IMG/VR virus record: IMGVR_UViG_3300003937_000325
Length of the DNA stretch: 64,000 nucleotides
Source of the DNA: a virus
Lineage: Duplodnaviria; Caudoviricetes
Direction: 5' to 3' (one strand)
Made by a program: the position numbers and the translations under genes. Position 1 is the stretch's first letter. Every line of letters begins with the position of its first letter. This document shows positions 24,405-44,900 of the stretch, in pieces. Below the pieces are notes generated by a model, which saw only the letters and a list, made by a program, of their open reading frames with translations, had not been told where the DNA came from and did no database searches.

Positions 24405-24596
24405 CTAATTGAATCTGATAACTGAGGCAGGTTTATTCATAATGTAATAAACATTAGTTTCTTCATTCCACATACTAAAAGTGATAGTCGAGTCTTTAGT
24501 TAAGTTATCAAACTCTCTAAAGTCAACTCTACCATCTTTTACTATTTGTACCTTTATAATAGGTAACGTACTATTTTTTCTTATAAAAAATTCCAT
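24405..24596 (-). pseudogene. Truncated BppU-like N-terminal domain, out of frame with the downstream linker-peptidase frame
   Basis: The first ~60 aa align by eye with 22319..22672, then the ORF stops; the +1 frame continues SDSISKPELCC-GGS-PT-peptidase. Confidence 0.55.
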
Positions 24597-28666: not shown

Positions 28667-29278
28667 ATGAGTGACTTAATGCAAAAATTAGCAGTTTCTA
28701 AAAAAATAATGGATAAACACAATGGAACACCTAGGAATCAAGGTGGAGGGTCACTACCTATGTCCGAAAATATAAACGCGACATATAATGTGCCTCAAGA
28801 TATGATACAACAACAAGTACCTCAACAACAAGTACCTCAACAGGCTCAACCAATTAGTAATGGTGAACCTGTAAGTGAAAATGCGATTAAAAATTCTAAA
28901 TTACCGGATGAAATAAAAAAATTAATGTTAGAAAATCCTATAGTTCAGCCACAGTCTAATGGTCCAGTATTAACTGACGAATTAATACAAGGAGCCACAC
29001 GACTAATGAATAATAATACACCTCCTCAAACAGGTCCTTTACAAAATGAAGGTAATACTGTTATCTCTAATTCTTCAACAATACCAAACAATGGGGATTT
29101 AAAACAAATGATTAGAGATGTAGTTCGTGACACAGTTAGAGATGTTGTTAGAGAAGAATTAAAAAGTTCGGGTATTGTTACTGAAGGAAACCAAAAAGTT
29201 AATGAAACATTATCTCTTAGAGTAGGTAAACATGTGTTTGAAGGAAAAGTCCTTAAAGTAAAAAAAGTAAAACAATAA
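28667..29278 (+). CDS. Gln/Pro/Asn-rich hypothetical protein
   Basis: ORF track; contains QQQVP x2. Confidence 0.6.
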   Translation: MSDLMQKLAVSKKIMDKHNGTPRNQGGGSLPMSENINATYNVPQDMIQQQVPQQQVPQQAQPISNGEPVSENAIKNSKLPDEIKKLMLENPIVQPQSNGPVLTDELIQGATRLMNNNTPPQTGPLQNEGNTVISNSSTIPNNGDLKQMIRDVVRDTVRDVVREELKSSGIVTEGNQKVNETLSLRVGKHVFEGKVLKVKKVKQ

Positions 29279-29333
29279 CAATACCTTTTCTTATTAAAAA
29301 TCTTTTACTATATTTTGATTAAAATTAAATTAT

Positions 29334-30542
29334 ATGTCAAAGATAAGAGTATTAGTCCTACCATCCGATAGAACAGGTGTCGGTAAATTTCGTTCAGTTG
29401 AACCTCACATTTTTCTACAAAATCAAAATCCTGATGACTTTCATGTAGATATAGATTACGACCCAAAAATTAATGATGATAACTTTTGGAAAGGTTATGA
29501 TATGGTTCATTTTCATAGAACAATCACTAAAGATTATGATAGTACACCGGCCTTAATCGATAAATTACATAAATGGGGCATAGTAACAGTTGCCGATATT
29601 GATGATTATTGGTTACCAACTAAAGAACATCCCGCACATGCTATGATTCAAAATAATAAGTTGAATCTAAAAATTAGAGCAAACTTAAAAGCTGCTCAAT
29701 ATGTGACAACAACTACAGAGATTTTTGCTCAAGAAATAAAAAAGTTTAATAAAAATGTTTTTGTTTTACCAAACGCGATTAACCCTAATGAACCTCAGTT
29801 TAAACATAAGACAGAACCCTCAGATAAATTAAGATTTGGGTGGTTAGGTGGTTCTTCACATTTACACGATTTAAAAATATTAGATAATTGTTTTAGTAAA
29901 TTAGGTAACTTAAAAGAAAAATATGAGTTATATTTATGTGGTTTTGATACAAGAGGCTCAGTAACTGAAATTGACCAAAAAACAGGTAATCAAAAACAAA
30001 GAGATATTAAACCAGAAGAAACGGTATGGGCGGAGTATGAAAAAATATTCACAAAAAACTATCAGGATGTACCTGAAGAATATAAAAAATACCTTTTAAC
30101 GTATAATCAACAACCTTACAACGATGAAAAATATTATCATAGAGTTTGGACACAACCCGTCACTTCGTACGCTAAAAACTACGCAAAATTTGACGTATCT
30201 TTAGCTCCGATTAAAAATCATATCTTTAATAGAATGAAATCTCAATTAAAAGTAATTGAAGCGGGGTTTTATAAAAAGGCAATTATAGCCTCAAATATTG
30301 GACCTTATACCATCGATTTAAAACACGCACTTAAATATGGTGAATTTGTTGATGGTAATGCATTATTAGTAAATGAAGGTAGAAATCATTCAGATTGGGC
30401 AAAATATATTAAGAAATTGGTTAATAACCCAACATGGGCTGAAGATTTAGGTGAAAGGTTATATGAAACAGTAAAAGACACTTATGATTTAAATGTAGTA
30501 ACAAAAACGAGAGCAGAAATATATAAAACAATAACAAAATGA
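29334..30542 (+). CDS. GT-B fold glycosyltransferase (GT4-like)
   Basis: DIDDYW, FGWLGGSSH and APIKNHIFNRMKSQLKVIEAG motifs. Confidence 0.8.
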   Translation: MSKIRVLVLPSDRTGVGKFRSVEPHIFLQNQNPDDFHVDIDYDPKINDDNFWKGYDMVHFHRTITKDYDSTPALIDKLHKWGIVTVADIDDYWLPTKEHPAHAMIQNNKLNLKIRANLKAAQYVTTTTEIFAQEIKKFNKNVFVLPNAINPNEPQFKHKTEPSDKLRFGWLGGSSHLHDLKILDNCFSKLGNLKEKYELYLCGFDTRGSVTEIDQKTGNQKQRDIKPEETVWAEYEKIFTKNYQDVPEEYKKYLLTYNQQPYNDEKYYHRVWTQPVTSYAKNYAKFDVSLAPIKNHIFNRMKSQLKVIEAGFYKKAIIASNIGPYTIDLKHALKYGEFVDGNALLVNEGRNHSDWAKYIKKLVNNPTWAEDLGERLYETVKDTYDLNVVTKTRAEIYKTITK

Positions 30543-31240
30543 TAGATTTACCATTAAACAAACTTTTATTTTTCGATTTAGAAACTGTAGGTATTGAAAA
30601 AGACTTACCGACACTTAAGAAAAATAAACCAGAATTAGCAAGATTATTTGAGAGTTACTTAGATTGGTTTATTAGGAAATATCCTGACCAAGAAGGTAAA
30701 ACACCTGAAGAGATTTTTATTAATAAGGCCGCATTAGTTGCTGAGTTCTCTAAAATTATAGTAGCATCTTTTTCTTTTATAACTCCAAGTGATGAGGTAC
30801 ATACTCAAACATTTGCCGAAGATGACGAGAAAGAATTATTACTTAAGGTTAGAGACTTATTAAATAAAGTTCAAAAATTAGATTTTCACTTATGTGGACA
30901 TAATATTAAATTTTTTGATATACCAACCTTAGGTAAAAGATTTTTAACTAATAATATTTTACCACCAAAAATATTACCTTCATACGAAACTAAACCGTGG
31001 GAGGTAAAGGCTCTTGACACTAAAGATATTTGGCAGTTTGGTAACAATTTTGGGATATCATCGTTAGATTTAATGTGTGTGTCAATGGGTATTGAAAGTC
31101 CTAAAACGGGGGAAGTAAGTGGTAATTTAGTACACGACACATATTGGAACGCAAATGGATTATCGCCAATAGCGGAATACTGTGAAAAGGATGTAAATGT
31201 ACTTGTCGAATTAATTAGAAAAATTTACAATTTAAAATAA
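30539..31240 (+). CDS. 3'-5' exonuclease, DEDDy / PolB-exo-like
   Basis: FFDLETV, GHNIKFFDIP, YCEKDV. Confidence 0.8.
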   Translation: MIDLPLNKLLFFDLETVGIEKDLPTLKKNKPELARLFESYLDWFIRKYPDQEGKTPEEIFINKAALVAEFSKIIVASFSFITPSDEVHTQTFAEDDEKELLLKVRDLLNKVQKLDFHLCGHNIKFFDIPTLGKRFLTNNILPPKILPSYETKPWEVKALDTKDIWQFGNNFGISSLDLMCVSMGIESPKTGEVSGNLVHDTYWNANGLSPIAEYCEKDVNVLVELIRKIYNLK

Positions 31241-31243
31241 GAT

Positions 31244-31843
31244 ATGTTTAAAAAATTTAATGAATTAAAAAATGATATGTCTAAATTAAAAGACATACAA
31301 AAGCAACTTAGTGATGTGGATATGTCTGACCCTAAAGCGATGTTAGAGTCTTTCGGTGTTGATTATGATGAGTTAGAAAAATCATTTACTCACACAGGAT
31401 TTGAACCAACACAAATAGACTATACTTTTAAGTCCGTTAATCCTGAACCTAAATATCACTATGGTAGTGATTCGGGGTTCGACTTACGAGCTAATGAAAA
31501 AGTGACATTAGAACCATTTGGTAGAGCTTTAATCCCAACAGGCTTATACATTGATGTACCACAAAGGAGTGAGGTACAAGTAAGACCTAAAAGTGGTTTA
31601 GCTATTAAGAAAGGTTTAACCGTCCTTAACACACCAGGTACTGTGGACGAAGGATACACAGGGGAAATAAAAGTTATATTAATTAATCTTAGTAATGAAA
31701 CTCAAGTAATCGAATTTGGAGATAAAATTGCACAAGCGGTAATATGTCCCGTAATTCAAGGTCGAGACGTTAAGTTAAATAGAGTTAAAGAAATTAAAGA
31801 AAAAGACCGTAACTCAAACGGATTTGGTTCTACAGGAAATTAA
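31244..31843 (+). CDS. dut: Trimeric dUTPase with N-terminal extension
   Basis: SGFDL, RPKSGL, PGTVDEGYTGEI, IAQ and GFGSTG motifs. Confidence 0.92.
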   Translation: MFKKFNELKNDMSKLKDIQKQLSDVDMSDPKAMLESFGVDYDELEKSFTHTGFEPTQIDYTFKSVNPEPKYHYGSDSGFDLRANEKVTLEPFGRALIPTGLYIDVPQRSEVQVRPKSGLAIKKGLTVLNTPGTVDEGYTGEIKVILINLSNETQVIEFGDKIAQAVICPVIQGRDVKLNRVKEIKEKDRNSNGFGSTGN

Positions 31844-31853
31844 ATAAAATTTT

Positions 31854-33254
31854 ATGATAACAATTGGATATTGTACTAAAAAAATTGACCCTAAGTTTAA
31901 AGAATATATAGAACAGTCTTGCGGTGTTCATAAAATGGAGGTCATACCTTTTGAAAATCCAGGTACCCATTCATTAAGTGAGGCTTATAATATAATTTTA
32001 GAAAAGGCAAGTAACGATATAGTAGTATTATGTCACGATGACCTTTACTTCGAAAAGAAGAATTGGGGAAATAAGGTACTTAAACATTTTAAAAGAAATC
32101 CTGAATATGGTATTTTAGGGGTCGCAGGTACTAAATTTTTTCCTAAGTCGGCAAGATGGTGGGAAATTACCGAAGAGATGTTAGGTATAGTTAACCACCA
32201 ACAAGGTGAAAAAAAATGGACTAACCAATATAGTGAATCAAAGGGTAGTAAATTAGATGAAACCGTCATTGTTGATGGTCTTTTCATCGCTTTAGATAAA
32301 ACTAAAATAAAACATACTTTTGATGAATCTTTTAATGGATTTCATTTTTATGATTTAGGTTTTAGTTTTAAAAATCACATTAGTGGAGTTAAGATTGGAG
32401 TATTTTATGATGTGAGAATAACCCACCTTTCAATAGGTCAGACAAATAATGAATGGGAAAATAATAGGTTAAAATTCTTAAGTATGTACGAGGATAAATT
32501 ACCTATACTTTTACCTACTAAATTTAATAAAAAACCAATAAAGAAAGGTGAACCCTTAGTAACTTTAGCGATGCCAATTTATAATTATGCTAAAAGGTTA
32601 AATCCTACTTTACAATCCGTTTATAACCAAGATTATACTAATTTCGAAATTACTTTAGTTAATGATGGTTCAGATGATGAGTACTGTTTAATGAAATTAG
32701 ATTCATTAGAAGGTCAGGAAGGTATACGAATTATACATAAAGAGAATACTGGAGTTTCTGACACTCGAAACGTGGCGGTTAGAGAAGGTAAAGGTGAATA
32801 CATTTTACCTTTAGATGCTGATGATATGATTTATCCTGGTTACCTTAAAACAGGTGTTAACATTATAAAGAAAAACCCTAAAATAAGTCCTGTTTATTGC
32901 GATACTGTTCATGTTGGTGAAATGCAGGGGTTAGAAAAAAGACCTGAGTGGTCAAAAGAAAGACTTTTACAGGGTCCATTTATAGTTAATAGTTCTATGT
33001 ATTCCCGTGAAGCTTATAATTCAATAGAGGGTTACAGTACAGAAATGAAAGGATGGGTAGATTATGACTTATGGGTACAAATGATGGATGCCGGATTTAT
33101 TGGTAAAAGAATCCCTAAGGGACTATTTATTTATTTCCACCATGAAAGTGAAGGTAAGGGGTCAGTCTCTACATCTGCACGACAAAATATGGGGGAATTA
33201 CATAAAACAGTCTTGGAAAGACATAAAAAAAGAAAAAACAACAGTAATGAGTAG
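31854..33254 (+). CDS. Two-domain GT-A glycosyltransferase (GT2-like x2)
   Basis: LCHDD in domain 1; VNDGS, GVSDTRN and PLDADD in domain 2. Confidence 0.85.
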   Translation: MITIGYCTKKIDPKFKEYIEQSCGVHKMEVIPFENPGTHSLSEAYNIILEKASNDIVVLCHDDLYFEKKNWGNKVLKHFKRNPEYGILGVAGTKFFPKSARWWEITEEMLGIVNHQQGEKKWTNQYSESKGSKLDETVIVDGLFIALDKTKIKHTFDESFNGFHFYDLGFSFKNHISGVKIGVFYDVRITHLSIGQTNNEWENNRLKFLSMYEDKLPILLPTKFNKKPIKKGEPLVTLAMPIYNYAKRLNPTLQSVYNQDYTNFEITLVNDGSDDEYCLMKLDSLEGQEGIRIIHKENTGVSDTRNVAVREGKGEYILPLDADDMIYPGYLKTGVNIIKKNPKISPVYCDTVHVGEMQGLEKRPEWSKERLLQGPFIVNSSMYSREAYNSIEGYSTEMKGWVDYDLWVQMMDAGFIGKRIPKGLFIYFHHESEGKGSVSTSARQNMGELHKTVLERHKKRKNNSNE

Positions 33255-33393
33255 TATTGACCAACAAAATAACGGTAACCCTCACACACATGAAACTAGA
33301 AATTCGTTCAATCAAAAAGTGGCAAAATTATCTATGTTAGGTAGAAGTAAAAAGGTACAGTGGAGTGATAAACGAAGATATCGAAACATATAA
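33247..33393 (+). CDS. 48-aa basic hypothetical protein (start revised to 33247)
   Basis: MSSIDQQ...KVQWSDKRRYRNI; this ATG overlaps the upstream stop, whereas the track start is buried inside the GT2 gene. Confidence 0.5.
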   Translation: MSSIDQQNNGNPHTHETRNSFNQKVAKLSMLGRSKKVQWSDKRRYRNI

Positions 33394-34223
33394 TGAAAAA
33401 TAATCCTAATATCGAAGCTTTTGATGAATTTGGTTTTATCTTATGGTACTACCTACCAGTCGCTTATCATCAATATTTAGAAGGTAATCTAAAATCGACT
33501 GCAAGTAAAATTGGTAGTGGACCCGTGTTTTATTTTTCTCCGAACCATACTGAGGTTAATAAACATTTTGACCCACCACTTTTACATCATTACTTAACTA
33601 CAGAACATAAAAATGTGTGCTACGGTTTAAATAGCCCTAAGTTTACTAATGATAAATGGACACCTCCACCACTCAAAGAGTTCTATAAAAATGATAAGTA
33701 TAAGTATGATAAACCAATTTTAACTATACATAATAAAAACACTAAAGAATGGGGTCGTCACCCTCATAATTACTTTAATAGTGAAATATTAGAAAAAATG
33801 TTTATCACTTTTGAAAATGATTATCAAATAATTTATATAAGACCGCCTGATAAATCTGATGACTACAAATTACAAATAGATACCGGACAAGGAACTTTAG
33901 ATATTGGTGATAAAGAAGTTTTAAAAAGACATCCTTCGGTTATTAATATTGAAACATTGTTACATGAAACAGATAAAACTTATAATGAAGTTCAATTTAT
34001 GGTATTAGCAAATTCAGAACATCACTTGACTCCGGCTGGTGACGCGGTTATTCCCTCATACTTTGGTGGTGATGTTTTTATTTATAATTGTCCTCGTTGT
34101 ATATCCGCTTCAAGAGGTGTTTGGAAAACTGGTTCATGGATGGAAAAATTATCGGGCTCTAAAATATATGGATTTAATAATTATAATCAGTTATTAATTA
34201 ACTCAAAAGATAAGTGGTTATAA
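33393..34223 (+). CDS. Putative glycosyltransferase-like protein
   Basis: EFG...LP N-terminus, Rossmann-like pattern and cluster context. Confidence 0.4.
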   Translation: MKNNPNIEAFDEFGFILWYYLPVAYHQYLEGNLKSTASKIGSGPVFYFSPNHTEVNKHFDPPLLHHYLTTEHKNVCYGLNSPKFTNDKWTPPPLKEFYKNDKYKYDKPILTIHNKNTKEWGRHPHNYFNSEILEKMFITFENDYQIIYIRPPDKSDDYKLQIDTGQGTLDIGDKEVLKRHPSVINIETLLHETDKTYNEVQFMVLANSEHHLTPAGDAVIPSYFGGDVFIYNCPRCISASRGVWKTGSWMEKLSGSKIYGFNNYNQLLINSKDKWL

Positions 34224-34224
34224 T

Positions 34225-34938
34225 TTATCTTTGATGTAGTAACATCCCATAATATTTAGGTTTACATTCCCCTAACCACCATTGCATTTCAGAAAAACTA
34301 CTCATATTGGTGCCGTAAATGTCCGTAGACAAACTACCTAAGTATTGGTCTATTAATATATCTTGCATACCTTCCACAGTGGTAAAATCCCCAAACTTGG
34401 TTCTTTTAGGTGTGGTGTAAACATCATATCTTTGTTTAATTAAATTTGTTGTCTCGGTGTCATCACAGGTTAATAAAATTTTACCTTCAACTTTATCCAT
34501 TATCTTAAAAAGATTATCTTTTTTAAAATGTCTACCCCATGAGTTATATTCGTGAGGAAAACTTCTAAAAGTTCTAACACTAACCGCACTATAATCGCCC
34601 AACCTATCTTTCTCTTCTTTAATTTTATTTGTAATGTAATCGATAGGTTCTAAAGTTTTAATCACTTCAATATATCTTTTCTTAAGGTCGGATGGTAAGT
34701 TATCTTTACCTCCTTCATTATGTGTGTTCATTTTATGGTGAATAAATTTACAGTCAGATACACTATTTATCGCACTACCATTAAAGATATTTTTATATAA
34801 ATCATTAAATTCACATCTAACTCCACCACCACTTTTAGGTACATTCCATAAAAGATTTATATCTCCATACTCCACTATGGATGATATGATACATTTCATT
34901 CTATTAGAAATACCACCATATGGATTACAGTTAATCAT
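34225..34938 (-). CDS. Putative fucosyltransferase-like (NodZ/GT23-like) protein
   Basis: GGISNRMKCIIS N-terminus, AVSVRT, LLTCDD and GTNMSSFS motifs. Confidence 0.55.
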   Translation of the reverse strand: MINCNPYGGISNRMKCIISSIVEYGDINLLWNVPKSGGGVRCEFNDLYKNIFNGSAINSVSDCKFIHHKMNTHNEGGKDNLPSDLKKRYIEVIKTLEPIDYITNKIKEEKDRLGDYSAVSVRTFRSFPHEYNSWGRHFKKDNLFKIMDKVEGKILLTCDDTETTNLIKQRYDVYTTPKRTKFGDFTTVEGMQDILIDQYLGSLSTDIYGTNMSSFSEMQWWLGECKPKYYGMLLHQR

Positions 34939-35614
34939 AAAATTGTTTAATTGGTTTTATTAATAATGGAAGTTTATCATTCGTAAAAATAACATATTCC
35001 ACATCCTTCCATCTTTGAAATTCAGTATACCCTATATCAGTAATATCTGTAAACTTACTTTCCACAAAATTTAAAAAATTTCTCTGATAGTCGGTAAAAG
35101 ATTCACTCGATTTATTTGGGGTATTTAAATCAAAAAGTCTATTATGTTTTTCTAATGTAGGTAAAACTAAAGAATTTTTAAATAACCCGTTAGATACCGA
35201 CGCGTGATTATTATCCCAATATGATGCAACAAAACTATGATTTTTTATTTTTTGTAAAAAATAACTTACCGTATTTTTAAGATTAGGTATATAATCATCT
35301 TCAATCAAAAAAGAATAATCATATTCACCATATGTTTCCATAATCCCTTTTTCCCAAGCACCATAAGAACCACCTACATTTTCCCTAGTAAATAAATTTC
35401 CTTGTAAACTACTTTTTTCTATAAATTTATTTATCGTATCAATACAATATTGGTCATATTCAATATTAGTTTTGTTAATTACAAATGTAAAACCATCAAT
35501 ATCATCAGGATTACTAGATAAAAATTCAATATGTTTATTTAATAACATTTTAAAATCAGTGTGTATTCCCGCTCTTCTTCTACCACAATATATGCTTACT
35601 ATATAATTTACCAT
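34931..35614 (-). CDS. Putative GT-A glycosyltransferase
   Basis: RENVGGSYGAW and FLIEDDY. Confidence 0.55.
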   Translation of the reverse strand: MVNYIVSIYCGRRRAGIHTDFKMLLNKHIEFLSSNPDDIDGFTFVINKTNIEYDQYCIDTINKFIEKSSLQGNLFTRENVGGSYGAWEKGIMETYGEYDYSFLIEDDYIPNLKNTVSYFLQKIKNHSFVASYWDNNHASVSNGLFKNSLVLPTLEKHNRLFDLNTPNKSSESFTDYQRNFLNFVESKFTDITDIGYTEFQRWKDVEYVIFTNDKLPLLIKPIKQFYD

Positions 35615-35620
35615 AGTTTT

Positions 35621-36298
35621 TTATAATTTATTATTTTTATATTCTCGATGGTATGACCTACCTATATGACCAACAAAAGGGTCCCATATTGAACCAAAAT
35701 CAATCATAGTACACTTATCGCCAATCTCATCATAAAGTTCATCTACAATAACATTAGTCGCCATAGAAGATGATAAACCGAAGACTACGTCATCGTATCT
35801 TTCCGTCATTTTTATCATATCACTTTTAATTCTTTCTTTATCTAAAAAACAATTAACAGATGGTACACTAATAAAATCAGTATATTTAATATCTAATTTC
35901 TTTAATTTATCACTTGATACAATAACAAAGTTTCTACTTTCTAATGATTTAACTAATGGTTTTAATTGTCCACTTAGAGCCGAGTCTTCCCATATACCCG
36001 CATTAACCCAATCAATATTTATATTATTGTTTTTTATAAATGGTAGTAAAATATTAAGTATATTTTTTATCTGTCCGTGGTCTAAATTCCATATTGCTTT
36101 ATAATAACCCTTATCGTTATTTAATGCATTATTAAGAGATTCCCTCATTTCAGGAAAATATTTATGACCATCACAATTTTGACCGTTTTTACCAATAGTA
36201 CAAAACCATTCTCCGTCTCCCCATCGAGTAAATGAAAAATTATCCTTACTATTTATTTTTTCTATATAATACTCAATTGGGTTATTTTTTATATTCAT
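35621..36298 (-). CDS. GT-D fold (DUF1792-like) glycosyltransferase
   Basis: FSFTRWGDGEW and IDFGSIWD motifs correspond to the DUF1792 'RFGDGE...DIG' signature. Confidence 0.65.
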   Translation of the reverse strand: MNIKNNPIEYYIEKINSKDNFSFTRWGDGEWFCTIGKNGQNCDGHKYFPEMRESLNNALNNDKGYYKAIWNLDHGQIKNILNILLPFIKNNNINIDWVNAGIWEDSALSGQLKPLVKSLESRNFVIVSSDKLKKLDIKYTDFISVPSVNCFLDKERIKSDMIKMTERYDDVVFGLSSSMATNVIVDELYDEIGDKCTMIDFGSIWDPFVGHIGRSYHREYKNNKL

Positions 36299-36310
36299 AG
36301 TCCCTTATTT

Positions 36311-37342
36311 TTAATACCCTAACATTGATGTGTCATATTTATCATATAATTCAGTTTGTTGACCTATCGATTTAGAGGGTTTAATGTTAATTTTTGGTAA
36401 GTCTAAATTTAAATCACCGATAAAATCTCTTATAATTTTTAATTGATTTTCTAAATCAAAACAAAGGTCTTCATATTTTATAACCAAATCGGCCTCTTTA
36501 CAAGACTTAATCGATTCATTTATATAATACTTTATCTTACCGTCTAAATCGTTAATACCGATATTTCCATACTTATTATGGGGTATGTACTTTTTCTTCA
36601 CTGCCATATCAATTGGGTGTCTCATAATATATACAGTTTTACATTTAGGAAAATCTTTTCTAAGTACATCATTTATAAACATAAAATGCCCATGTTTAAT
36701 CGCAAATTTATCAGGATTTTTTAATCTTTTTTTTACAAAATTAATTACTCTTTTAAAATCTTTTTTTCTCCATGAAGCGTCAAATTCTTGCACAAAACTA
36801 CCTTTACCAAAATCTAATGAATCCGCACCAATTTCTCTACCTACGTAAAATCCGAAACCTTCAAATATTTCGGCAACTACTCTACTTCCAGTACCACCAA
36901 AACCACCTATAAAAATCTTACTAACAGGTTCTTTAATATATTTCATATGAAGGTACTTTTCACCTCTAACTATTTTAACCTCACCAGTTTCTACAAAACC
37001 TAATGACTCATATAATTTTTTGGCGAAATTGTTTTCAAAAACCCATAAAGTTGCGTAATTTTTATTTTCTAAATATAAATTATAGGCTTGTCTAGCATAT
37101 CCTTTTTTACGAAAATCAGGGTGTATATCACACCCAACCTCATCACCATTAGTTCTAATATAACCAACAGGTTCTTCATTAACCTCAATTATAAACCATA
37201 AAGGATTATAAGATTCAAACCATGATTTACATTCATCACTTGTAAATTCTGAATCATTTTCTAAAAATTTTCTAGTTGACTCATCATTCCTAACTTCAAT
37301 TAAAAAGTTTAAATCATCTACAGTTAGTTTTCTTAATATCAT
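36311..37342 (-). CDS. GNAT N-acetyltransferase (PseH-like) fused to a PAPS-dependent sulfotransferase
   Basis: DIHPDFRKKGYA and NNFAKKLYESLGF (GNAT); IGGFGGTGSRVV (5'-PSB), YIMRHPID (3'-PB) and IKYEDL (sulfotransferase). Confidence 0.75.
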   Translation of the reverse strand: MILRKLTVDDLNFLIEVRNDESTRKFLENDSEFTSDECKSWFESYNPLWFIIEVNEEPVGYIRTNGDEVGCDIHPDFRKKGYARQAYNLYLENKNYATLWVFENNFAKKLYESLGFVETGEVKIVRGEKYLHMKYIKEPVSKIFIGGFGGTGSRVVAEIFEGFGFYVGREIGADSLDFGKGSFVQEFDASWRKKDFKRVINFVKKRLKNPDKFAIKHGHFMFINDVLRKDFPKCKTVYIMRHPIDMAVKKKYIPHNKYGNIGINDLDGKIKYYINESIKSCKEADLVIKYEDLCFDLENQLKIIRDFIGDLNLDLPKINIKPSKSIGQQTELYDKYDTSMLGY

Positions 37343-38524
37343 TTACCACCCTTTTTTAATTGTATCTACGATATATTGTCGGTCTTCAGGGGTTACCCAC
37401 CAACCAACTGGTATAGATACCATCTTACCAATAGTTTTATCTAAATTAGGTAAACTACAAACAAATTCTCTAACACACGTATGCTTATCATTTCTTTCGT
37501 GTACCTGAGAAACCGATATTCCATGGTCACCCATATGTTTATAGAATCTATCCCTATCATTAACAAGTACAGAATAAATCCAAAAAGAGGAATCAAATCC
37601 ATCTTCTCTTTTTAATAATGTAAGTCCCTCGACATCTTTAAGATTTTCATCGTAAAATTTAGCGTTAGATTTATGTTTTTCAATTATCTCGTCAGCATGT
37701 TTTAAATTTTCAATACCTACAGTCGCACAGACATCATTCATATGGAATTTATAACCCCATTCCTCAATATCCGCTTCACATCTAAAATCTTTTCTATCAC
37801 CATCACGGTCAATACCGTACCACCTTATTAGTCTAGCTCTATCGTTTAACTTCTTATGTGGAGAAAGTAGTAACCCACCATCAATAGATGTTATATGTTT
37901 TATGGCCTGTAATGAAAACATGGTTAAATTACCATGTGTACCAATACTTTTTCCTTTATATGTTGAACCAAAAGAGTGTGCTCCATCCTCTATCACCGCA
38001 GGTTTAAAACCATACATACGATGTGCTCTTTCTTGTATTTCTTTTATTTTATCTAAATCGTTTGGATAACCTCCCCAATGAACTAACATAATAACTTTAG
38101 TTTTTGGTGTGATTTTTCTTGCTAAGTCATCTAAATCCATATTTAAAGTTTCAGGGTCAATATCCACCCATTTGATGTTTAAATTATTTGCCAATACAGG
38201 CCAATTAGATGCGGTACAAGTTAATGGGGTGGCTAAAACCTCGTCCCCTTCTTCTAAACCTGGCCATTTTGAATCGTAACCAATAACACCCTCATAAACT
38301 ACCTGATTTGTTGATGGTTTTTTTAATAAATGTAAAGCTAAATGAAGTGCTGATGTACCTGCATTTACCGTTGATACGTAGTCGTGATTAAAATGAGTTT
38401 TCATCATTTCTTCTAATTCATTTACTTTAGGTCCTTGACCAATATATCCGCTATTGATTACTTTAGTTACCTCTTCAGCCGCTGTTGGAGCCATGAATAC
38501 CTTGAATAAGTCTATTTTTTTCAT
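37343..38524 (-). CDS. DegT/DnrJ/EryC1/StrS PLP-dependent nucleotide-sugar aminotransferase
   Basis: NAGTSALHLA, VHWGG, EDGAHSFG, SLQAIKH (PLP Lys) and YKFHMND. Confidence 0.92.
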   Translation of the reverse strand: MKKIDLFKVFMAPTAAEEVTKVINSGYIGQGPKVNELEEMMKTHFNHDYVSTVNAGTSALHLALHLLKKPSTNQVVYEGVIGYDSKWPGLEEGDEVLATPLTCTASNWPVLANNLNIKWVDIDPETLNMDLDDLARKITPKTKVIMLVHWGGYPNDLDKIKEIQERAHRMYGFKPAVIEDGAHSFGSTYKGKSIGTHGNLTMFSLQAIKHITSIDGGLLLSPHKKLNDRARLIRWYGIDRDGDRKDFRCEADIEEWGYKFHMNDVCATVGIENLKHADEIIEKHKSNAKFYDENLKDVEGLTLLKREDGFDSSFWIYSVLVNDRDRFYKHMGDHGISVSQVHERNDKHTCVREFVCSLPNLDKTIGKMVSIPVGWWVTPEDRQYIVDTIKKGW

Positions 38525-38627
38525 ATTATGTTGTTTTATATACTATAAGTTATTAATTTACTTATAAAAATAAACAAACAATTTAGATTTTTAAATAGTC
38601 TACTACATTTAGGATAAAATTATAATT

Positions 38628-39443
38628 ATGAGCATAGTAGGTATAGTTGGAAATGGGTTTGTGGGAGAATCACAAATTTTTGCATTTTCACCAACAAATG
38701 AAATAAGAGTGTATGATATCGACCCTCTAAAGTCGACACATACTAAAGAAGAAACCCATAAATCTGATTTTATATTTGTATGTGTACCAACACCTATGAG
38801 TGTTGACGGAAGACAAGATTTATCTTTTATAGAAAAAGTTTTTGAAGAATCCGTTGAGGGACCAATATACATTATTAAATCGACCGTGTTACCCGGAACC
38901 ACAGAAAAATTACAAGAAAAATATCCTCACTTAAGTATAATATTTTCACCTGAATTTTTAACTGAGAGAACTGCTAAATTAGATATGTTAACTCAAGCTA
39001 GAATAATTTTTGGTGGAGATAGAAAAATTACCAATAAGGTTGAGAAACTATTTTCAAACAGGTTTATGAATCGTCACTTTATACATACTGATTCAAAAAC
39101 CGCCGAATTTATAAAGTATATGAATAATACTTTTTTTGCAACTAAAGTGTCATTAATGAATGAGTACCATAGATTAGCTAATTTAGTTGGAGTTAATTGG
39201 GATGATGCAATGTACGGGTTTTCATCGGATGGTCGTATTGGTGACTCCCACTTACATGTACCAGGACCTGACGGTAAATTAGGTTTTGGTGGTACCTGTT
39301 TTCCTAAAGATATTAACGCATTAATCTCCATGGCTAATGATGTCGGTGTTAATATGAATGTGTTAGGTGCCGCCTGGAAAACTAATTTAGAAGTTAGACC
39401 TGAGCAAGATTGGAATAAACTAAAAGGTAGGGCAATAAGTTAA
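38628..39443 (+). CDS. ugd: UDP-glucose/GDP-mannose 6-dehydrogenase (short form)
   Basis: GNGFVG, CVPTP, KSTV, PEFL, KYMNN and GFGGTCFPKD (catalytic Cys). Confidence 0.85.
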   Translation: MSIVGIVGNGFVGESQIFAFSPTNEIRVYDIDPLKSTHTKEETHKSDFIFVCVPTPMSVDGRQDLSFIEKVFEESVEGPIYIIKSTVLPGTTEKLQEKYPHLSIIFSPEFLTERTAKLDMLTQARIIFGGDRKITNKVEKLFSNRFMNRHFIHTDSKTAEFIKYMNNTFFATKVSLMNEYHRLANLVGVNWDDAMYGFSSDGRIGDSHLHVPGPDGKLGFGGTCFPKDINALISMANDVGVNMNVLGAAWKTNLEVRPEQDWNKLKGRAIS

Positions 39444-39444
39444 T

Positions 39445-40527
39445 ATGAAAAATGTAGTAGTTTTAGGTGGGGGAGGATTCATTGGTGGTCACCTCTCAAA
39501 AAGATTAAAAGATAATGGTAATAATGTAACCATATGTGACATAAAAAATCATGAGTTCTTTAATCATACGGAGATATGTGATAATTTTATCAAAGGAGAT
39601 TTAAGAGACCCTAAAATAGTGGAACAAGTTATTACGGATGGTATTGATGAGGTTTATCAATTAGCCGCAGATATGGGTGGTGCGGGTTATATTTTTACGG
39701 GTGATAATGATGCGAATGTAATGCATAATTCGGCATTAATTAATTTAAATGTGGTACATGAATGTACTAAAAAGAAAGTTGGTAAAGTATTTTATTCTTC
39801 TTCGGCGTGTATGTATCCTGAACATAATCAATTAGACCCTAAAAATCCAAACTGTGAAGAGTCTTCAGCTTATCCAGCTAATCCCGATTCTGAATATGGG
39901 TGGGAAAAGTTATTTTCAGAAAGACTATTTTTATCGTTTAATAGAAATTATGAATTAGATGTTAGAATTGCACGTTTTCATAATATTTTTGGACCTATGG
40001 GTACGTGGACAGGAGGTAAAGAAAAGGCTCCCGCAGCAATGTGTCGTAAAGTCGCAGAAACTGAAAATACATTAGAAGTGTGGGGAGACGGTAATCAAAC
40101 ACGTTCTTTTCTTTTTATAGATGAATGTATAACCGCAATATTTAAATTAATGGAGTCCGATTTTATTGGTCCCGTTAATATTGGTTCTGAAGAAATGGTA
40201 ACAATAAATCAGTTGGGCCAAATGGCTATTGATATCTCGGAAAAAGATGTTAAAATTAGTAATATATATGGTCAAGAATTTATTGATAAATATGGGTTCA
40301 AATGTCCTTTAGGTGTAAGAGGTAGAAACTCTGACAATAAACTTTATAGAAATAAAATAGGGTGGGAAGTTTCCCAACCTTTAATAAATGGAATGAAAAA
40401 AACATATCAGTGGATTAATGAGCAAGTAAACAATAAGACTTATATATACGAAAGTCCCGATAAAGGGAATACAATATATCGTAGAGAATTTGGTGAACCA
40501 CCAAACACTCGTGAAAAAACGAAATAA
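39445..40527 (+). CDS. NAD-dependent epimerase, GDP-mannose 3',5'-epimerase-like
   Basis: GGGGFIG, QLAADMGGAGYI, SSSACMYP, YGWEK and GGKEKAPAAMCRK. Confidence 0.85.
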   Translation: MKNVVVLGGGGFIGGHLSKRLKDNGNNVTICDIKNHEFFNHTEICDNFIKGDLRDPKIVEQVITDGIDEVYQLAADMGGAGYIFTGDNDANVMHNSALINLNVVHECTKKKVGKVFYSSSACMYPEHNQLDPKNPNCEESSAYPANPDSEYGWEKLFSERLFLSFNRNYELDVRIARFHNIFGPMGTWTGGKEKAPAAMCRKVAETENTLEVWGDGNQTRSFLFIDECITAIFKLMESDFIGPVNIGSEEMVTINQLGQMAIDISEKDVKISNIYGQEFIDKYGFKCPLGVRGRNSDNKLYRNKIGWEVSQPLINGMKKTYQWINEQVNNKTYIYESPDKGNTIYRREFGEPPNTREKTK

Positions 40528-40545
40528 ATACACAATACTGAAATA

Positions 40546-41253
40546 ATGGCAAGAAAAGGAGAATCGGGTACACGAAAATTACCAAGAAAAGATTTAATAA
40601 ATAAAATAATTAATAAAAATCCTAAACAAAAATTTTTATCAGAAAGTCAAAAAGAATATCACGAAATATTAAAGGAGAGTGAAATAACAATATGTACAGG
40701 ACCTGCGGGGGTGGGTAAATCATATATCGCAATGAAAGCTGCGGTAGAACTTTTAATGGACCAAAATAACTCTTATGAAAAAATAATCATTGTTAGACCG
40801 GCAGTTGAAGCTGAGGAAAAATTAGGAGCATTACCTGGTAATTTAGAAGAAAAACTAGACCCATATATTTTTCCATCGTATTACTTATTAAATAAAATTA
40901 TAGGTAAAGAGGCTAGAGAAAAATTAAAAGAAAATGATATTATAGAGGTTTTCGCTTTAGCTTATATGAGAGGTATGAATATTGATAACTCAATATTAAT
41001 CTTTGAAGAGGCTCAGAATTCAACACCTTCTCAGATGAAATTACTATTAACTAGAATAGGTTTTAATAGTAAATTTTTCATATCAGGCGATATTGACCAA
41101 ACGGATAGATATAAAGATAAAACACAATCGGGGTTATACGATGCGACAATTAGATTTAAAAATTTAGACAAAGTTGGCACATATGATTTTAAAACAGACG
41201 ATATCATCAGAAATCCTTTGATTAGTAAATTATTAGATAGATACGACACATGA
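40546..41253 (+). CDS. phoH: PhoH-like ATPase
   Basis: GPAGVGKS, LGALPG, AYMRG, EEAQN and SGDIDQ. Confidence 0.92.
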   Translation: MARKGESGTRKLPRKDLINKIINKNPKQKFLSESQKEYHEILKESEITICTGPAGVGKSYIAMKAAVELLMDQNNSYEKIIIVRPAVEAEEKLGALPGNLEEKLDPYIFPSYYLLNKIIGKEAREKLKENDIIEVFALAYMRGMNIDNSILIFEEAQNSTPSQMKLLLTRIGFNSKFFISGDIDQTDRYKDKTQSGLYDATIRFKNLDKVGTYDFKTDDIIRNPLISKLLDRYDT

Positions 41254-41900
41254 GAGTAGCATTTGATTTAAATGGTGTAATTAGAGACACTTTCACAAAG
41301 GCAGAACAATTATATCAAAAACATTATATTGATGAATTTGAGGACGAAAATAATTCTGTTTATAATGAAGAGACTGAAGAATTTGATAAAGTATTATCTG
41401 TCGATGACTTTAAATACGAATTAGATTTACCTGTAAAAAATTTAGACGATTTAATCAATCATTTTAAATTTAAAGATAAAGAAGATTTATTTGAATTCTT
41501 TTATATCGATTTTGCTATGCAAATTTTTGGTCACTCACCATCTATAGATGGACCAACTTTTAATATTTTAAATGAAATATACGAAACTTTAAGAGACGAC
41601 CATGAAGTACTAATAGTATCTGATGAAATCGGTAAGTCAAAACCAGCTACACTATTTTTTTTATCCAAGTATGGTTGTTTGGTTGAGAAAATAAAATTTT
41701 ATTCTAACATTACAATAGATAGTATGTGGGATGAAGTTGATATACTAATTACTTCCAACCCAAATCATATTATAAACCAACCGAAAAATAAAACAGTTAT
41801 TAAATGTACAACATCGTATAATGAAGATATTAATTCAGAATACACCATCAACGATATTGGAGAATTTAAAGAACTATATAAACAATTAAAATTAAAATAA
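41250..41900 (+). CDS. HAD-like 5'(3')-nucleotidase-type protein
   Basis: RVAFDLNGVIRD motif I (second Asp replaced by Asn). Confidence 0.5.
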   Translation: MRVAFDLNGVIRDTFTKAEQLYQKHYIDEFEDENNSVYNEETEEFDKVLSVDDFKYELDLPVKNLDDLINHFKFKDKEDLFEFFYIDFAMQIFGHSPSIDGPTFNILNEIYETLRDDHEVLIVSDEIGKSKPATLFFLSKYGCLVEKIKFYSNITIDSMWDEVDILITSNPNHIINQPKNKTVIKCTTSYNEDINSEYTINDIGEFKELYKQLKLK

Positions 41901-42217
41901 TGTTACAATTTTTAGAAGAAAACTATTATGTTGACTTTATTGCTTTAGAAAAAGAGGTTAATATACCTAAAAATGAAGACGGTAAAGAATTAACCACTGA
42001 AAAAGAAACTGAAAAAATCTCTGAAGATAAATTTGCTCAACACATAAGTGTAGTGAAATTTGAAACAATAAAAATGATGTTAGAGGTCGTTTTAACTGAA
42101 AGAGAGGAAATAGACGATAACTTAGGTATACGTGCGGGAACTTCAAAGTCTTTAAGTATTCCCTTTAAAATTGCTTTTAATACATTATTAAGACACGGAA
42201 TAATAAAATATATATAA
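41900..42217 (+). CDS. Hypothetical protein
   Basis: ORF track; operon coupling. Confidence 0.65.
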   Translation: MLQFLEENYYVDFIALEKEVNIPKNEDGKELTTEKETEKISEDKFAQHISVVKFETIKMMLEVVLTEREEIDDNLGIRAGTSKSLSIPFKIAFNTLLRHGIIKYI

Positions 42218-42220
42218 ATT

Positions 42221-43285
42221 ATGGATACAGAATTATTAAAAAAAGTTGAACTATCGGTTCAACGATTAACGGATAAATCAGTAAGGATTTATTTTTTAAC
42301 ACAAGACACTAAAGGGAACGCTAAGGCTTCCGTAAGACAAACTTATGAAATCGCCTTAACCCTAAAAAATAATGGATTTAATCCAATAATCATTCATGAA
42401 ACAAAAGAATATACGGGAGTTTCTGAATGGTTAGGTGAAGAGTATATGGAATTACCTCATGAAAGTATTGAAGGTGAAGATTTAAAGATTTCTCCTGAAG
42501 ATTTTATTGTTGTACCTGAAATATATGGTCACGTATTAGAACAACTTGCTAATCTACCTTGTGGTAAAATCATCTCATGTCAGGCTTATGACCATATGTT
42601 AGAGACTTTACAACCTGGTACAACTTGGTCACAATATGGTTTCCTAAAGGCGATAACTACTAGTGAAAAACAAACAGAACTTGTTAAGGGCGTTATGAAG
42701 AATATCACATTTGATATTATACCACCTTTTATTTCTGAAAAGTTCTCAGCGAAAGAAGTACCATCAAAACCAATCATTTCAATTCATACTCGTGACCAAA
42801 GGGACACTATGAAAATAATAAAAACTTTTTATTTAAAGTACCCACAATTTAGATGGGTTACATTTAGAGACATGAGAGGTCTTAATCAAGAACAGTTCGC
42901 AGAATACTTAAAAGATTCTTTTGTTTCTGTATGGGTAGATGATACATCATCAGTAGGGACATTCCCGATAGAATCAATGGCGAGTCGAACACCAGTAATC
43001 GGTAAAGTTCCAAATCTAAAACCTGATTGGATGGCAGAAAACAATGGTGTTTGGACATACGAATTAAATCAAATGACTGATATAATAGCTGAGTTCACTC
43101 AAAATTGGTTAGAGGATAATATTAATGATGATTTATATAAGGCGGGTATTGAAACCTCCGATAAATTTAAAAATAGAGAAGAATTCGAATCAAATGTAGT
43201 TGGAACATTTTCAGGTTACTTAGAGACTAGAAAAACTATATTCGAAACACAATTAGATAAACTAAAAGTAGAAGAAGAAAATTAA
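42221..43285 (+). CDS. GT-B fold glycosyltransferase (GT4-like)
   Basis: IVVPEIY and GTFPIESMASRTPVIG correspond to the 'E-x7-E' region. Confidence 0.7.
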   Translation: MDTELLKKVELSVQRLTDKSVRIYFLTQDTKGNAKASVRQTYEIALTLKNNGFNPIIIHETKEYTGVSEWLGEEYMELPHESIEGEDLKISPEDFIVVPEIYGHVLEQLANLPCGKIISCQAYDHMLETLQPGTTWSQYGFLKAITTSEKQTELVKGVMKNITFDIIPPFISEKFSAKEVPSKPIISIHTRDQRDTMKIIKTFYLKYPQFRWVTFRDMRGLNQEQFAEYLKDSFVSVWVDDTSSVGTFPIESMASRTPVIGKVPNLKPDWMAENNGVWTYELNQMTDIIAEFTQNWLEDNINDDLYKAGIETSDKFKNREEFESNVVGTFSGYLETRKTIFETQLDKLKVEEEN

Positions 43286-43290
43286 TAATT

Positions 43291-44097
43291 ATGGAAAATA
43301 AATTAAACGTATCAGTTATACTACCTATTAATTCTTCAAAAGTGAAAAACTTTGTTGAGTTCTTTAATAGTTGTATACTTTCAATAATAAAACAATCGAC
43401 ACCAATCGATGAGTTAGTTATTGTACATAGTGATGAAGAGTCACTAAAAGAAGTAGTTCAAAACTTTGACTATAGTGGTCTAACAGTAAACTTAGTTGAA
43501 AATACAGGTGATGTTGATTTCTCATCTCAAGTAAACTTAGGAGTTGAAAACGCTAAAAATGAATGGATTTCTTTATTAGAGTTTGATGATGAATATGCGT
43601 CAATATGGTTTAAAAATGTTAAACGATATATAGAAGCTTATCCAAAAGTATCAGGATTCTTACCATTAGTATTAGACGTAGATGAAAAAGGTGTTTTTGC
43701 TGGATTCACAAATGAGGCAACCTTTGCAGCTAATATGAATAGTGAGATTGGTTACTTAACTAATGAAGTTTTATTAAACTATCAAAATTTTCAAACAAGC
43801 GGAGTCGTACTTAAAAAATCAGTTTTTAAAGACTTTGGTGGATTTAAAAAATCCATGAAATTAACTTTTGTATATGAGTTCCTACTAAGGTTAAGTTATA
43901 ATTCAGTAGAAATAATGACAATACCTAGAATTGGTTACAAACACATGAACATGAGAGAGGGTTCAATTTTTTGGAATTACAAATTTGGTGAGCAAAAAAT
44001 ATCTGAAGACGAAGTTGCGTTTTGGATTGACTCGGCGAAAAAAGAACATTTTTTTATTGAAGATAGGGACATAAACTATCAAGCAATAGATGTTTAA
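43291..44097 (+). CDS. GT2-family glycosyltransferase
   Basis: SVILP, NLGVENAKNEWISLLEFDD. Confidence 0.75.
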   Translation: MENKLNVSVILPINSSKVKNFVEFFNSCILSIIKQSTPIDELVIVHSDEESLKEVVQNFDYSGLTVNLVENTGDVDFSSQVNLGVENAKNEWISLLEFDDEYASIWFKNVKRYIEAYPKVSGFLPLVLDVDEKGVFAGFTNEATFAANMNSEIGYLTNEVLLNYQNFQTSGVVLKKSVFKDFGGFKKSMKLTFVYEFLLRLSYNSVEIMTIPRIGYKHMNMREGSIFWNYKFGEQKISEDEVAFWIDSAKKEHFFIEDRDINYQAIDV

Positions 44098-44900
44098 TGT
44101 TTTTAGAACCAAAAAGTGCTACTACAACTAATAACGATTCAAATAAAGTGGTTGTTTCAGGTAATACTGAAACTCCTGAAGTGATTGAAAAGAAAAAAAG
44201 AGGTAGAAAACCAACAACTAATAATTATTTCGCGGAAAGAGAAGAGAGGGCAGTTAGATTATTTTTAACTGCCTCTACTTTTACTGAAAAAAATAAAATC
44301 TATGATGAATATCTAAGAGCACCTTTAGATAAAATGATTGAATCAATCATTAGAAGATATAAACTTTATAGAAAGGGGATGGAATTTCGTGAAATTAATC
44401 ATGACACCCACTCTTTTTTAATTACAAAGGTTGAAAAATTTAAACCTGAAAAAGGTAAAAAAGCATACTCTTATTTTGGTACGATATGTAAAAACTACCT
44501 AATGGGTATGATTATAAAAGACCAAAAAGAACAAAATAGGAAAATATCATATGAAGATATAACTACTAAATTAGAAAGTAGGCCTGATATGATTTACTAT
44601 CTTGAAAATGAAAAGATAGAGGCAACGGATGTGATTAAAAGATTCATAAAAGAACTTAATGATTATATAGAAAATACCGATTTAAATAATAACGAATTAA
44701 AGTTAGGATACGCTTTGATGGAGTTATTTGAGAATTATAACAATATTTTTATAGGAACGGATAATAATAAATTTAATAAAAATATAATACTACTATCTCT
44801 ACGTGATATGACAAATATGTCTACTAAGGAAATAAGGACATCAATGAGAAAGTATAAGAAATTATATTATGAGTTGACAAATAAATTACATAATCTATAA
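44097..44900 (+). CDS. Phage late sigma factor (T4 gp55-like)
   Basis: Sigma region 2-like FKPEKGKKAYSYFGTICKNYL resembles the gp55 'F-x-P...AFSYFT' region; last gene of a non-structural operon, immediately before late genes. Confidence 0.7.
   Translation: MFLEPKSATTTNNDSNKVVVSGNTETPEVIEKKKRGRKPTTNNYFAEREERAVRLFLTASTFTEKNKIYDEYLRAPLDKMIESIIRRYKLYRKGMEFREINHDTHSFLITKVEKFKPEKGKKAYSYFGTICKNYLMGMIIKDQKEQNRKISYEDITTKLESRPDMIYYLENEKIEATDVIKRFIKELNDYIENTDLNNNELKLGYALMELFENYNNIFIGTDNNKFNKNIILLSLRDMTNMSTKEIRTSMRKYKKLYYELTNKLHNL

Follow-up and report, generated by a model that had tools for sequence, protein, structure and literature searches.

A glycosyltransferase and sugar-synthesis island with a conserved frame and two exchangeable slots in an uncultured marine T4-like phage

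Frame and exchangeable slots

We analysed a stretch of viral DNA of 64,000 nucleotides (nt) in length, here called the window (IMG/VR record IMGVR_UViG_3300003937_000325; Duplodnaviria, Caudoviricetes). The analysis was centred on an island at positions 29334-44097, in which glycosyltransferase (GT) and sugar-synthesis genes are interleaved with genes for dUTPase, exonuclease and PhoH. The island is situated between the late operon and a sigma-like gene. All open reading frames (ORFs) of the island were scanned and 14 related viral loci were compared gene by gene. Families were assigned by Pfam, PHROG and NCBIfam, and also by Atlas neighbours, PDB sequence profiles and AlphaFold2 (AF2) models submitted to Foldseek. 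Comparison revealed that the island consists of a conserved frame interrupted by two slots of exchangeable content (Table 1).

The left part of the frame comprises a GT4-like gene, the exonuclease, the dUTPase and a double GT2 gene. The right part comprises PhoH, the genes for proteins of 216 and 105 amino acids (aa), a GT-B gene, a GT2 gene, the sigma-like gene and two more genes. In total, five GT domains are combined in the frame with nucleotide-metabolism genes. The stretch from the double GT2 gene to PhoH, 0.8 to 8 kb in length, occurs in at least 11 arrangements among the 14 loci. Against the nearest record, G001, flanks with 93-97% nucleotide identity surround two replaced stretches (33394-38634 and 39448-40544), the breakpoints of which fall exactly on gene boundaries. 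The slots assort independently, as L018 combines slot 1 of the window with the other type of slot 2.

Both slots adjoin a gene coding for a truncated nucleotide-sugar dehydrogenase (mini-Ugd), the most conserved gene of the region. Its 83-98% aa identity in nine relatives exceeds that of the flanking frame genes. The original prediction, made from the letters of the window alone, had listed a UDP-glucose dehydrogenase here and had overlooked the hypervariable slots on either side. The dehydrogenase assignment holds for the NAD motif (GxGxxG) and the catalytic cysteine (GGTCFPKD), both kept in alignment with 7kws, but not for the three-domain architecture. Mini-Ugd consists of UDPG_MGDP_dh_N and the central domain, lacks the C-terminal nucleotide-sugar-binding domain and matches TIGR03026 (175 bits) at model positions 67-295 of 413. 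In L011, L014 and L015, a full-length dehydrogenase comes after it. Mini-Ugd may act as a small functional enzyme, as the partner of another subunit or as an anchor for recombination.

Slot 2 of the window holds a gene whose product matches Arabidopsis GDP-mannose 3,5-epimerase (GME, 2C59) over residues 4-330 (phmmer, 3.4e-90, 306 bits). The next family of short-chain dehydrogenases/reductases reaches about 90 bits. The predicted epimerase-like enzyme is thus confirmed and, as judged by similarity, is a true GDP-mannose 3,5-epimerase for GDP-L-galactose/GDP-L-gulose synthesis. The epimerase is present in slot 2 of the window, L011, L014 and L015. The slot 2 of L007, L008, L017 and L018 contains Gmd and an Fcl-like gene (GDP-L-fucose) instead.

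All 47 cassette proteins that were tallied belong to glycan chemistry. Transferases include GT2, GT4, GT-D-like proteins, polysaccharide pyruvyl transferases, three sulfotransferase families and both hexapeptide and GNAT acetyltransferases. The remainder includes Gmd, UDP-N-acetylglucosamine (UDP-GlcNAc) 2-epimerase, a DAHP_synth_1-family enzyme (possibly Kdo8P-synthase-like) and weak WecG/TagA matches. In six loci, the fucosyltransferase-like gene is accompanied by the GT-D-like gene; the two are located on the minus strand in the window and on the plus strand in L009. The fucosyltransferase-like gene co-varies with GDP-L-fucose or GDP-L-galactose modules. No repeats were found at the borders of the inverted five-gene block. 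Like O-antigen and capsule loci, the island has conserved flanks that enclose GT and sugar-synthesis genes of hypervariable content.

The host of the island is a distant T4-like myovirus, uncultured and marine, with GC content of about 31% in the window. The window encodes a gp23-type capsid protein (6e-72), gp20 portal (4e-78), T4-type large terminase, tail sheath and family-B polymerase. The closest cultured capsid proteins, those of Microcystis phage Mel-JY01 and Flavobacterium phage immuto, show only 42-45% identity. Megablast with the island as query retrieved nothing from deposited phage genomes, and G001 has 22% of the window's sampled 31-letter words in common with it. Since related IMG/VR contigs reach 297 kb (G004, CheckV completeness 99%), the phage belongs to a jumbo-phage lineage of about 300 kb. 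"Moraphages" (PMC12619734) were considered as this lineage and found unlikely, because they are set outside the T4 group in that paper and the window phage has clear gp23 and gp20.

Table 1. Genes of the island and one candidate acceptor gene upstream of it (positions in the window)
Feature	Position	Strand	Size (aa)	Assignment and remarks
Candidate acceptor, Thr/Pro-rich	20449..22224	-	591	Thr/Pro tracts at residues 58-171 and 216-350 (composition scan); putative virion protein
Frame GT 1, GT-B/GT4-like	29334..30542	+	402	phrog_7162 "glycosyltransferase", 1e-44
PolB-exo-like 3'-5' exonuclease	30539..31240	+		DNA_pol_B_exo2, 1.5e-8; in all relatives; not glycan-related
dUTPase	31244..31843	+		Pfam dUTPase, 2e-24; NCBIfam dUTP diphosphatase, 152 bits, over cut-off
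Frame GT 2+3, two-domain GT2-type	31854..33254	+	466	
First gene of slot 1	33393..34223	+	276	Possible GT-B C-terminal half
Fucosyltransferase-like, slot 1	34225..34938	-	237	O-FucT/NodZ/FUT8 clan
GT-A-fold nucleotide-sugar enzyme, slot 1	34931..35614	-	227	
GT-D-like glycosyltransferase, slot 1	35621..36298	-	225	RWGDGEW motif
GNAT N-acetyltransferase + sulfotransferase-like fusion, slot 1	36311..37342	-	343	
DegT-family sugar aminotransferase, slot 1	37343..38524	-	393	DegT_DnrJ_EryC1, 1.7e-70
Mini-Ugd, truncated nucleotide-sugar dehydrogenase	38628..39443	+	271	Between the two slots
GDP-mannose 3,5-epimerase (predicted), slot 2	39445..40527	+	360	Starts 1 nt after mini-Ugd
PhoH-like ATPase	40546..41253	+		PhoH, 1.6e-63; right border of slot 2
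Two frame genes	41250..42217	+	216 and 105	Conserved in 10 relatives
Frame GT 4, GT-B related to AmGGT	42221..43285	+	354	
Frame GT 5, GT2	43291..44097	+	268	Glycos_transf_2, 2e-8, over cut-off

Assignment of island genes and other genes of the lineage

Up to eight GT-like genes had been predicted in the island. Seven of them are supported, and the 276-aa candidate opening slot 1 lacks assignment. Frame GT 1 is GT-B/GT4-like by its PHROG match, with Pfam Glyco_trans_1_4 under cut-off (4e-4), and is kept in 12 relatives at 67-99% aa identity. Frame GT 4 is AmGGT-like, since the profile of six orthologues matches PDB 8xsg "putative glycosyltransferase" at 7.4e-11. This structure is A. minor glucoside-glucosyltransferase (AmGGT), a GT-B enzyme (PMC12159676). 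No homologue of frame GT 4 was found by tblastn in deposited phage genomes. The nearest deposited homologues of frame GT 1 are encoded in 735-kb uncultured phages (35%). Further ones (about 25%), often in two copies, occur in Phapecoctavirus-type and Justusliebigvirus-type coliphages and in Klebsiella and Campylobacter phages.

Both the double GT2 gene and the additional GT2 were correctly recognized. The former encodes Glyco_tranf_2_5 at residues 26-211 (9e-27) and Glycos_transf_2 at residues 238-345 (6e-30), and is longer in five relatives (548-824 aa). The latter, frame GT 5, shows 69-81% aa identity in six relatives. Among the interspersed genes, dUTPase and exonuclease were right, but the nucleotidase-like gene is faint: the 216-aa protein gives NT5C/5-nucleotidase (HAD-type) matches at E 0.06-0.13. 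Similarly, the late sigma gene proposed next to the last block (44097-44900) is a weak match (Sigma70_r2, 0.013).

The 276-aa protein has no Pfam or PHROG match. One of its Atlas neighbour sets carries GT9 on 30% of members, and the AF2 model (predicted local distance difference test, pLDDT, 54) matches only generic Rossmann and GT-B-like folds, giving no usable assignment. Its orthologues are found in L008, L011, L012 and L018. The fucosyltransferase-like protein is placed in the O-FucT/NodZ/FUT8 clan by all ten of its ten best family-bearing neighbours in Atlas feature (language-model) search and by its motifs, GGISNR (GGxxNR), invariant R122 and SSFSE. A link by hidden Markov models or PDB is missing, as no Pfam/HMM match was obtained and PDB sequence profile searches gave chance matches only.

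The adjacent 227-aa protein had been described as GT-A-like. Its AF2 model is poor as a whole (pLDDT 57), with the N-terminal 110 residues good, and Foldseek retrieves GT-A glycosyltransferases together with sugar nucleotidyltransferases (E ~1e-5). YxGxRR and EDD motifs are invariant. According to this model, the protein would be either a GT-A glycosyltransferase or a sugar nucleotidyltransferase. A GT-D-like assignment of the 225-aa protein is suggested by its motif, by Atlas neighbours with PF08759/PF22882 and by homologue P0107 (37% identity, E 4e-42), in which both families are present. The protein itself has no Pfam match at E <10, and PDB profile search gave chance matches only. Its 251 homologues come mostly from viral-size contigs of up to 393 kb.

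In the predicted GNAT-sulfotransferase, the GNAT half is confirmed (3e-9 to 3e-7). The other half matches Sulfotransfer_3 under cut-off (1e-3) and contains motifs of the 3'-phosphoadenosine-5'-phosphosulfate type, GGTGSR and RHPIDMAV. PDB sequence profile search with this half gave chance matches only, and BLASTP detected no similarity to the sulfotransferase of G001. The two halves are separate genes in L008. The GNAT module was observed with three fusion partners: the sulfotransferase-like domain in the window, a GT-A-fold domain (L008:15021-16148) and a GT-D-like domain in database homologues (P0085 and P0087). The DegT aminotransferase was predicted correctly. Its closest NCBIfam model is PseC (199 bits, under equivalog cut-off).

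The gp23-type capsid protein (53897-55639, 580 aa) is matched by Pfam mainly at residues 313-569, and tblastn matches to other phages fall into two pieces with about 55% covered, which suggests a large insertion or extension. A 520-aa protein encoded at 14002-15564 contains a complete Fe/Mn superoxide dismutase at residues 47-236 (6e-39, 4e-21), and its other residues, about 280, are without assignment. G004 encodes a 193-aa bacteriorhodopsin-like protein (277102-277683, minus strand; L034:17102-17683; Bac_rhodopsin, 3.7e-14), about 1 kb from a PAS-domain histidine kinase gene (L034:18627-19877).

Export genes, candidate acceptors and possible targets

The absence of flippase, Wzy, Wzz and carrier transferase, noticed in the original prediction, was upheld on a broader basis. 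The initiating polyprenol-phosphate transferase, Wzx, Wzy and chain-length regulator are polytopic proteins, and none of them was detected in the window, in the 14 cassettes or in near-complete G004. In the hydropathy scan of the 64-kb window, two hydrophobic segments were the most that any ORF contained. Island genes have no such segments except for the exonuclease (one marginal), and no polytopic protein was found in the cassettes of the 14 relatives. There is no match to Wzx (PF01943) in G004, the control being positive in 13 of 14 genomes. No ORF of G004 has more than four hydrophobic segments, its multi-segment ORFs including the rhodopsin-like protein and the PAS histidine kinase, and G002 and G003 give the same picture. 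The island thus has the property typical of mycobacteriophage systems, i.e. soluble phage GTs without lipid-carrier or export genes.

We also examined Thr/Pro-rich proteins as candidate acceptors. The nearest gene of this type is located 7 kb from the island on the opposite strand. Relatives have such proteins as well: G004 encodes at least eight, five of them 1108-2499 aa in length with tracts reaching about 2,000 residues, G003 three, G002 one, and L012 and L015 one each. None of the Thr/Pro proteins of the window and relatives has a signal peptide. The C-terminus of one of them is a ConA-like lectin domain with a match to a "virion structural protein" PHROG. Neither Pfam nor PHROGs assigned the Thr/Pro proteins, or a 117-aa module encoded at 22319-22672, to tail fibres or BppU. 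Thr/Pro proteins of far greater length, e.g. a 1515-aa one in G003, begin with this module. In the window, the module is encoded in a further variable region, located at 19962-24600 upstream of the island, which occupies the same position in L008, L012, L015 and L016. The 591-aa Thr/Pro gene and a 458-aa reprolysin-like gene of this region are replaced or absent in close relatives.

Relatives G004 and G003 further encode GT60 (PF11397), a polypeptide GlcNAc-transferase (193-199 bits), which is found neither in the 64-kb window nor in 14 control genomes. Both GT60 genes (G004 102103-103371, minus strand, L056:1129-2397; G003 6137-8300) are situated among genes of giant Thr/Pro-repeat proteins. 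Homologues with 45-48% identity occur in cultured jumbo phages XacN1, Xoo-sp13, CM1 and RAS14. In XacN1, a four-gene cassette (ORF330-334: GT60-like, carbamoyltransferase and two more) is syntenic with that of G004, and identity between the GT60-carbamoyltransferase cassettes of relatives and cultured jumbo phages is 38-47%. The 31-kb XacN1 region that was examined contains no homologue of any island protein. A literature search for GT60 with bacteriophage retrieved no relevant paper.

As to occurrence and expression, all sampled words (100%) of the window's cassette variant occur in 14 or more marine DNA runs, which come from over 10 studies. Parts of the variant are present in six RNA libraries. 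In four RNA libraries, from four studies, the island is covered from end to end by contigs of at least 99% identity, with DNA carry-over possible. RNA-contig depth cannot rank the genes, and parts without cover carry no meaning. In one run, the RNA contigs are interrupted from 38540 to 38585, within the divergent intergenic region that separates the DegT gene from mini-Ugd (38525-38627), a weak hint of divergent transcription starts and two promoters. An apparent joint from 28928 to 33233 in two RNA runs was disregarded due to its very short flanks. The putative late motif TATTTAT precedes the adjacent late operon (26742) as well as the 44931 gene, and is located in sense orientation 9 nt upstream of the start of the 591-aa gene. 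Overall it is not enriched (59 versus 57 expected), and its one notable feature is placement ahead of late genes. Fewer sigma-70 promoters were predicted than in shuffled sequence (103 versus 111). Terminator-like sites number 15 versus 6.9, none of them between the late operon and the first GT.

With middling confidence, we propose that the island supplies sugars and elongates glycans in a cytoplasmic, lipid-carrier-free glycosylation of virion fibres. The carrier-free character is suggested by the soluble nature of island proteins and the lack of export genes. The link to the acceptors is circumstantial and includes co-occurrence of Thr/Pro proteins and GT60 in the lineage. The five frame GT domains would build a core oligosaccharide, and the two exchangeable slots would supply lineage-specific outer sugars and decorations. 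In the window, these would be GDP-L-galactose or GDP-L-gulose (epimerase), an N-acetylated amino sugar (DegT and GNAT) and probably sulfate, with the fucosyltransferase-like and GT-D-like proteins acting as slot transferases. The most likely acceptors would be Thr/Pro-repeat tracts of the phage's own fibre-like proteins, folding in the cytoplasm. To judge from relatives, these tracts would probably be primed by GT60 encoded elsewhere in the genome. Recombination at gene boundaries may then swap slots and generate near-identical phages with different glycan coats. The characterised GT-D member acts in cytoplasmic protein O-glycosylation (Fap1/dGT1). Both GT-D and O-FucT-type families have protein-directed members, which adds to the circumstantial case. 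An experimental hint comes from XacN1, in whose virions at least two glycoproteins were reported (PMC5852040); XacN1 shares the GT60 cassette only.

Several points weigh against this proposal. The originally predicted Thr/Pro-rich targets are real proteins and a trait of the lineage, but their tie to the island is circumstantial, with Thr/Pro and GT60 genes lying tens of kb off. These proteins are putative virion parts, and the evidence for GT60 comes from relatives G004 and G003. In L016, the 591-aa Thr/Pro gene is missing at its position and the frame GTs are kept. The island is surrounded by early or middle-type genes (dUTPase, exonuclease, PhoH, sigma), TATTTAT is absent within 100 nt upstream, on the sense strand, of every island gene, and DNA contamination of the RNA libraries is possible. 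Pyruvyl transferases and weak WecG/TagA-type matches in relatives' cassettes are typical of lipid-linked polysaccharide assembly. As for the predicted acidic, sulfated glycan, acidity rests on the truncated dehydrogenase and sulfation on a weak domain match.

Remodelling of the host surface is a serious rival, one that we regard as less probable. Island enzymes would then act on polyprenol-linked O-antigen, capsule or protein-glycan precursors of the host, which would itself supply the initiating transferase, flippase and ligase, and the slots would track the glycan type of the host strain. The altered surface would block superinfection or keep progeny off debris. This is the published reading for hypervariable GT-rich islands of pelagimyophages and cyanomyophages (PMC7029224) and for cyanophage S-SCSM1 (PMC9602691), whose genome encodes Gmd, Fcl, GME, O-FucT and NodZ along with five GTs. 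Island genes without the late motif would fit early action on the host. Pyruvyl transferase, the DAHP_synth_1-family enzyme (possibly Kdo8P-synthase-like), UDP-GlcNAc 2-epimerase and the weak WecG/TagA matches resemble bacterial polysaccharide loci, the peripheral GTs of which are likewise devoid of membrane segments. On the contrary, five conserved and up to four variable GT domains would correspond to a whole new glycan and not to a modified one. Neither the 14 cassettes nor the near-complete relative contain an initiating transferase, flippase, polymerase or ligase, and Wzx/Wzy are usually repeat-unit specific. Moreover, the lineage possesses protein-directed GT60 and abundant mucin-like acceptors, and no marine-phage experiment is known to support surface remodelling.

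It is also conceivable, and in our opinion improbable, that targets are mixed. Frame and slots might serve different acceptors (capsid, decoration, secreted phage, soluble or host proteins), or mini-Ugd and the 276-aa protein might be non-catalytic remnants. The dehydrogenase exceeds all other genes of the region in conservation despite its truncation, assignment of the 276-aa and 227-aa proteins is insecure, and frame GTs persist in L016 without a local Thr/Pro gene. Nevertheless, tight operon-like packing and co-variation of donor-synthesis and transferase genes favour one coherent pathway.

A more specific version of fibre glycosylation is a long shot. The fibres would wear a strain-specific sulfated L-fucose/L-galactose glycan mimicking algal polysaccharides (fucoidan, porphyran). 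Glycan-capture proteins of a polysaccharide-feeding host, probably from Bacteroidota, would bind the virion as food, and slot swaps (GDP-L-fucose versus GDP-L-galactose, sulfo- and pyruvyltransferases) would adapt this lure to what the host feeds on.

Least probable of all is hypermodification of DNA, the alternative named in the original prediction, in which GTs would put sugars on modified bases and dUTPase, exonuclease and the nucleotidase-like gene would shape the nucleotide pool. GT genes are indeed interleaved in conserved order with dUTPase, 3'-5' exonuclease, PhoH and the faint nucleotidase-like gene, T-even GT-B enzymes glucosylate DNA, and DNA glycans of various kinds have been described (Pyle et al. 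2024, cited by PMC12619734). However, the single ThyA homologue of G004 is a canonical thymidylate synthase (TIGR03284, 345 bits, over equivalog cut-offs), with neither ThyX nor a second ThyA-like hydroxymethylase in that genome, which argues against DNA glycosylation. No Tet_JBP match was obtained in relatives, a weak negative because the control was silent as well, and the chemistry encoded (aminotransferase, N-acetyl-, sulfo- and pyruvyltransferases, GDP-L-sugars, 8-9 GT domains) goes far beyond described DNA glycans.

Comparison with known systems

The lineage represents a good case for settling the targets of glycan islands common in marine T4-like phages. It is abundant, its frame-plus-slots organization is clear, relatives encode GT60 and mucin-like proteins, and the GT60 cassette also occurs in a cultured phage. 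Should the fibres carry glycans, virion glycosylation would extend from mycobacteriophages to large marine phages, and virus-made L-galactose, possibly with sulfate, would be added to virion glycan chemistry. Phage surfaces would then diversify by cassette exchange, much like bacterial O-antigens.

GT/sugar islands as such are already known in marine T4-like phages, including S-SCSM1 with Gmd, Fcl, GME and fucosyltransferases. We found no description, mostly without dedicated search, of the frame-plus-two-slot design on a truncated dehydrogenase or of the alternative GDP-L-sugar modules. The same applies to the recurrent sulfo- and pyruvyl-transferases, the GT-D-like gene and the association of the island with GT60 and with giant mucin-like proteins.

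The closest counterparts are the pelagimyophage host-recognition cluster (Zaragoza-Solas et al. 2020, PMC7029224) and S-SCSM1 (PMC9602691). They share with the window a T4-like core (gp23, gp20, TerL) and a non-syntenic island rich in GTs and nucleotide-sugar enzymes, the function of which was proposed; Gmd, Fcl, GME, O-FucT/NodZ-type proteins and several GTs recur in S-SCSM1. Both papers favour modification of the host O-chain. Unlike these islands, that of the window is located outside the tail-fibre cluster, has a five-GT frame and two slots around a truncated dehydrogenase, contains GT-D-like and sulfotransferase genes, and belongs to a lineage of about 300 kb with GT60 and giant Thr/Pro proteins.

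Mycobacteriophages Che8, Corndog and Myrna (Freeman et al. 2023, as cited in PMC12619734) likewise appear to employ soluble GTs without carrier or export genes. Their glycans are reported to be attached to Ser/Thr/Pro-rich parts of virion proteins, and GT content to vary between related phages. The cassettes reportedly consist of 1-4 GTs beside capsid or tail-tube genes, use sugar donors of the host and modify capsid C-termini. In contrast, the island in the window has 8-9 GT domains with its own donor synthesis and tailoring, non-structural neighbours, and fibre-like mucin tracts as proposed acceptors. With XacN1, Xoo-sp13, CM1 and RAS14, it is the relatives that share the GT60 cassette, outside the window.

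Similarity to streptococcal serine-rich-repeat adhesins (GtfA/B, Gtf3, dGT1 with GT-D) lies in stepwise cytoplasmic O-glycosylation of a long low-complexity tract of hydroxy-amino acids by GT-B, GT-A and GT-D enzymes. The window differs in having neither a GtfA/GtfB pair nor accessory Sec, in Thr/Pro instead of Ser-rich tracts, and in its GT-D-like protein being a stand-alone distant member. Giant viruses (Mimivirus fibril and chlorovirus capsid glycans) combine their own nucleotide-sugar synthesis and many soluble GTs with glycosylated surface fibrils. Their clusters resemble the island by gene content, with aminotransferase, N-acetyltransferase, epimerases and clade-specific composition, in viruses that infect eukaryotes.

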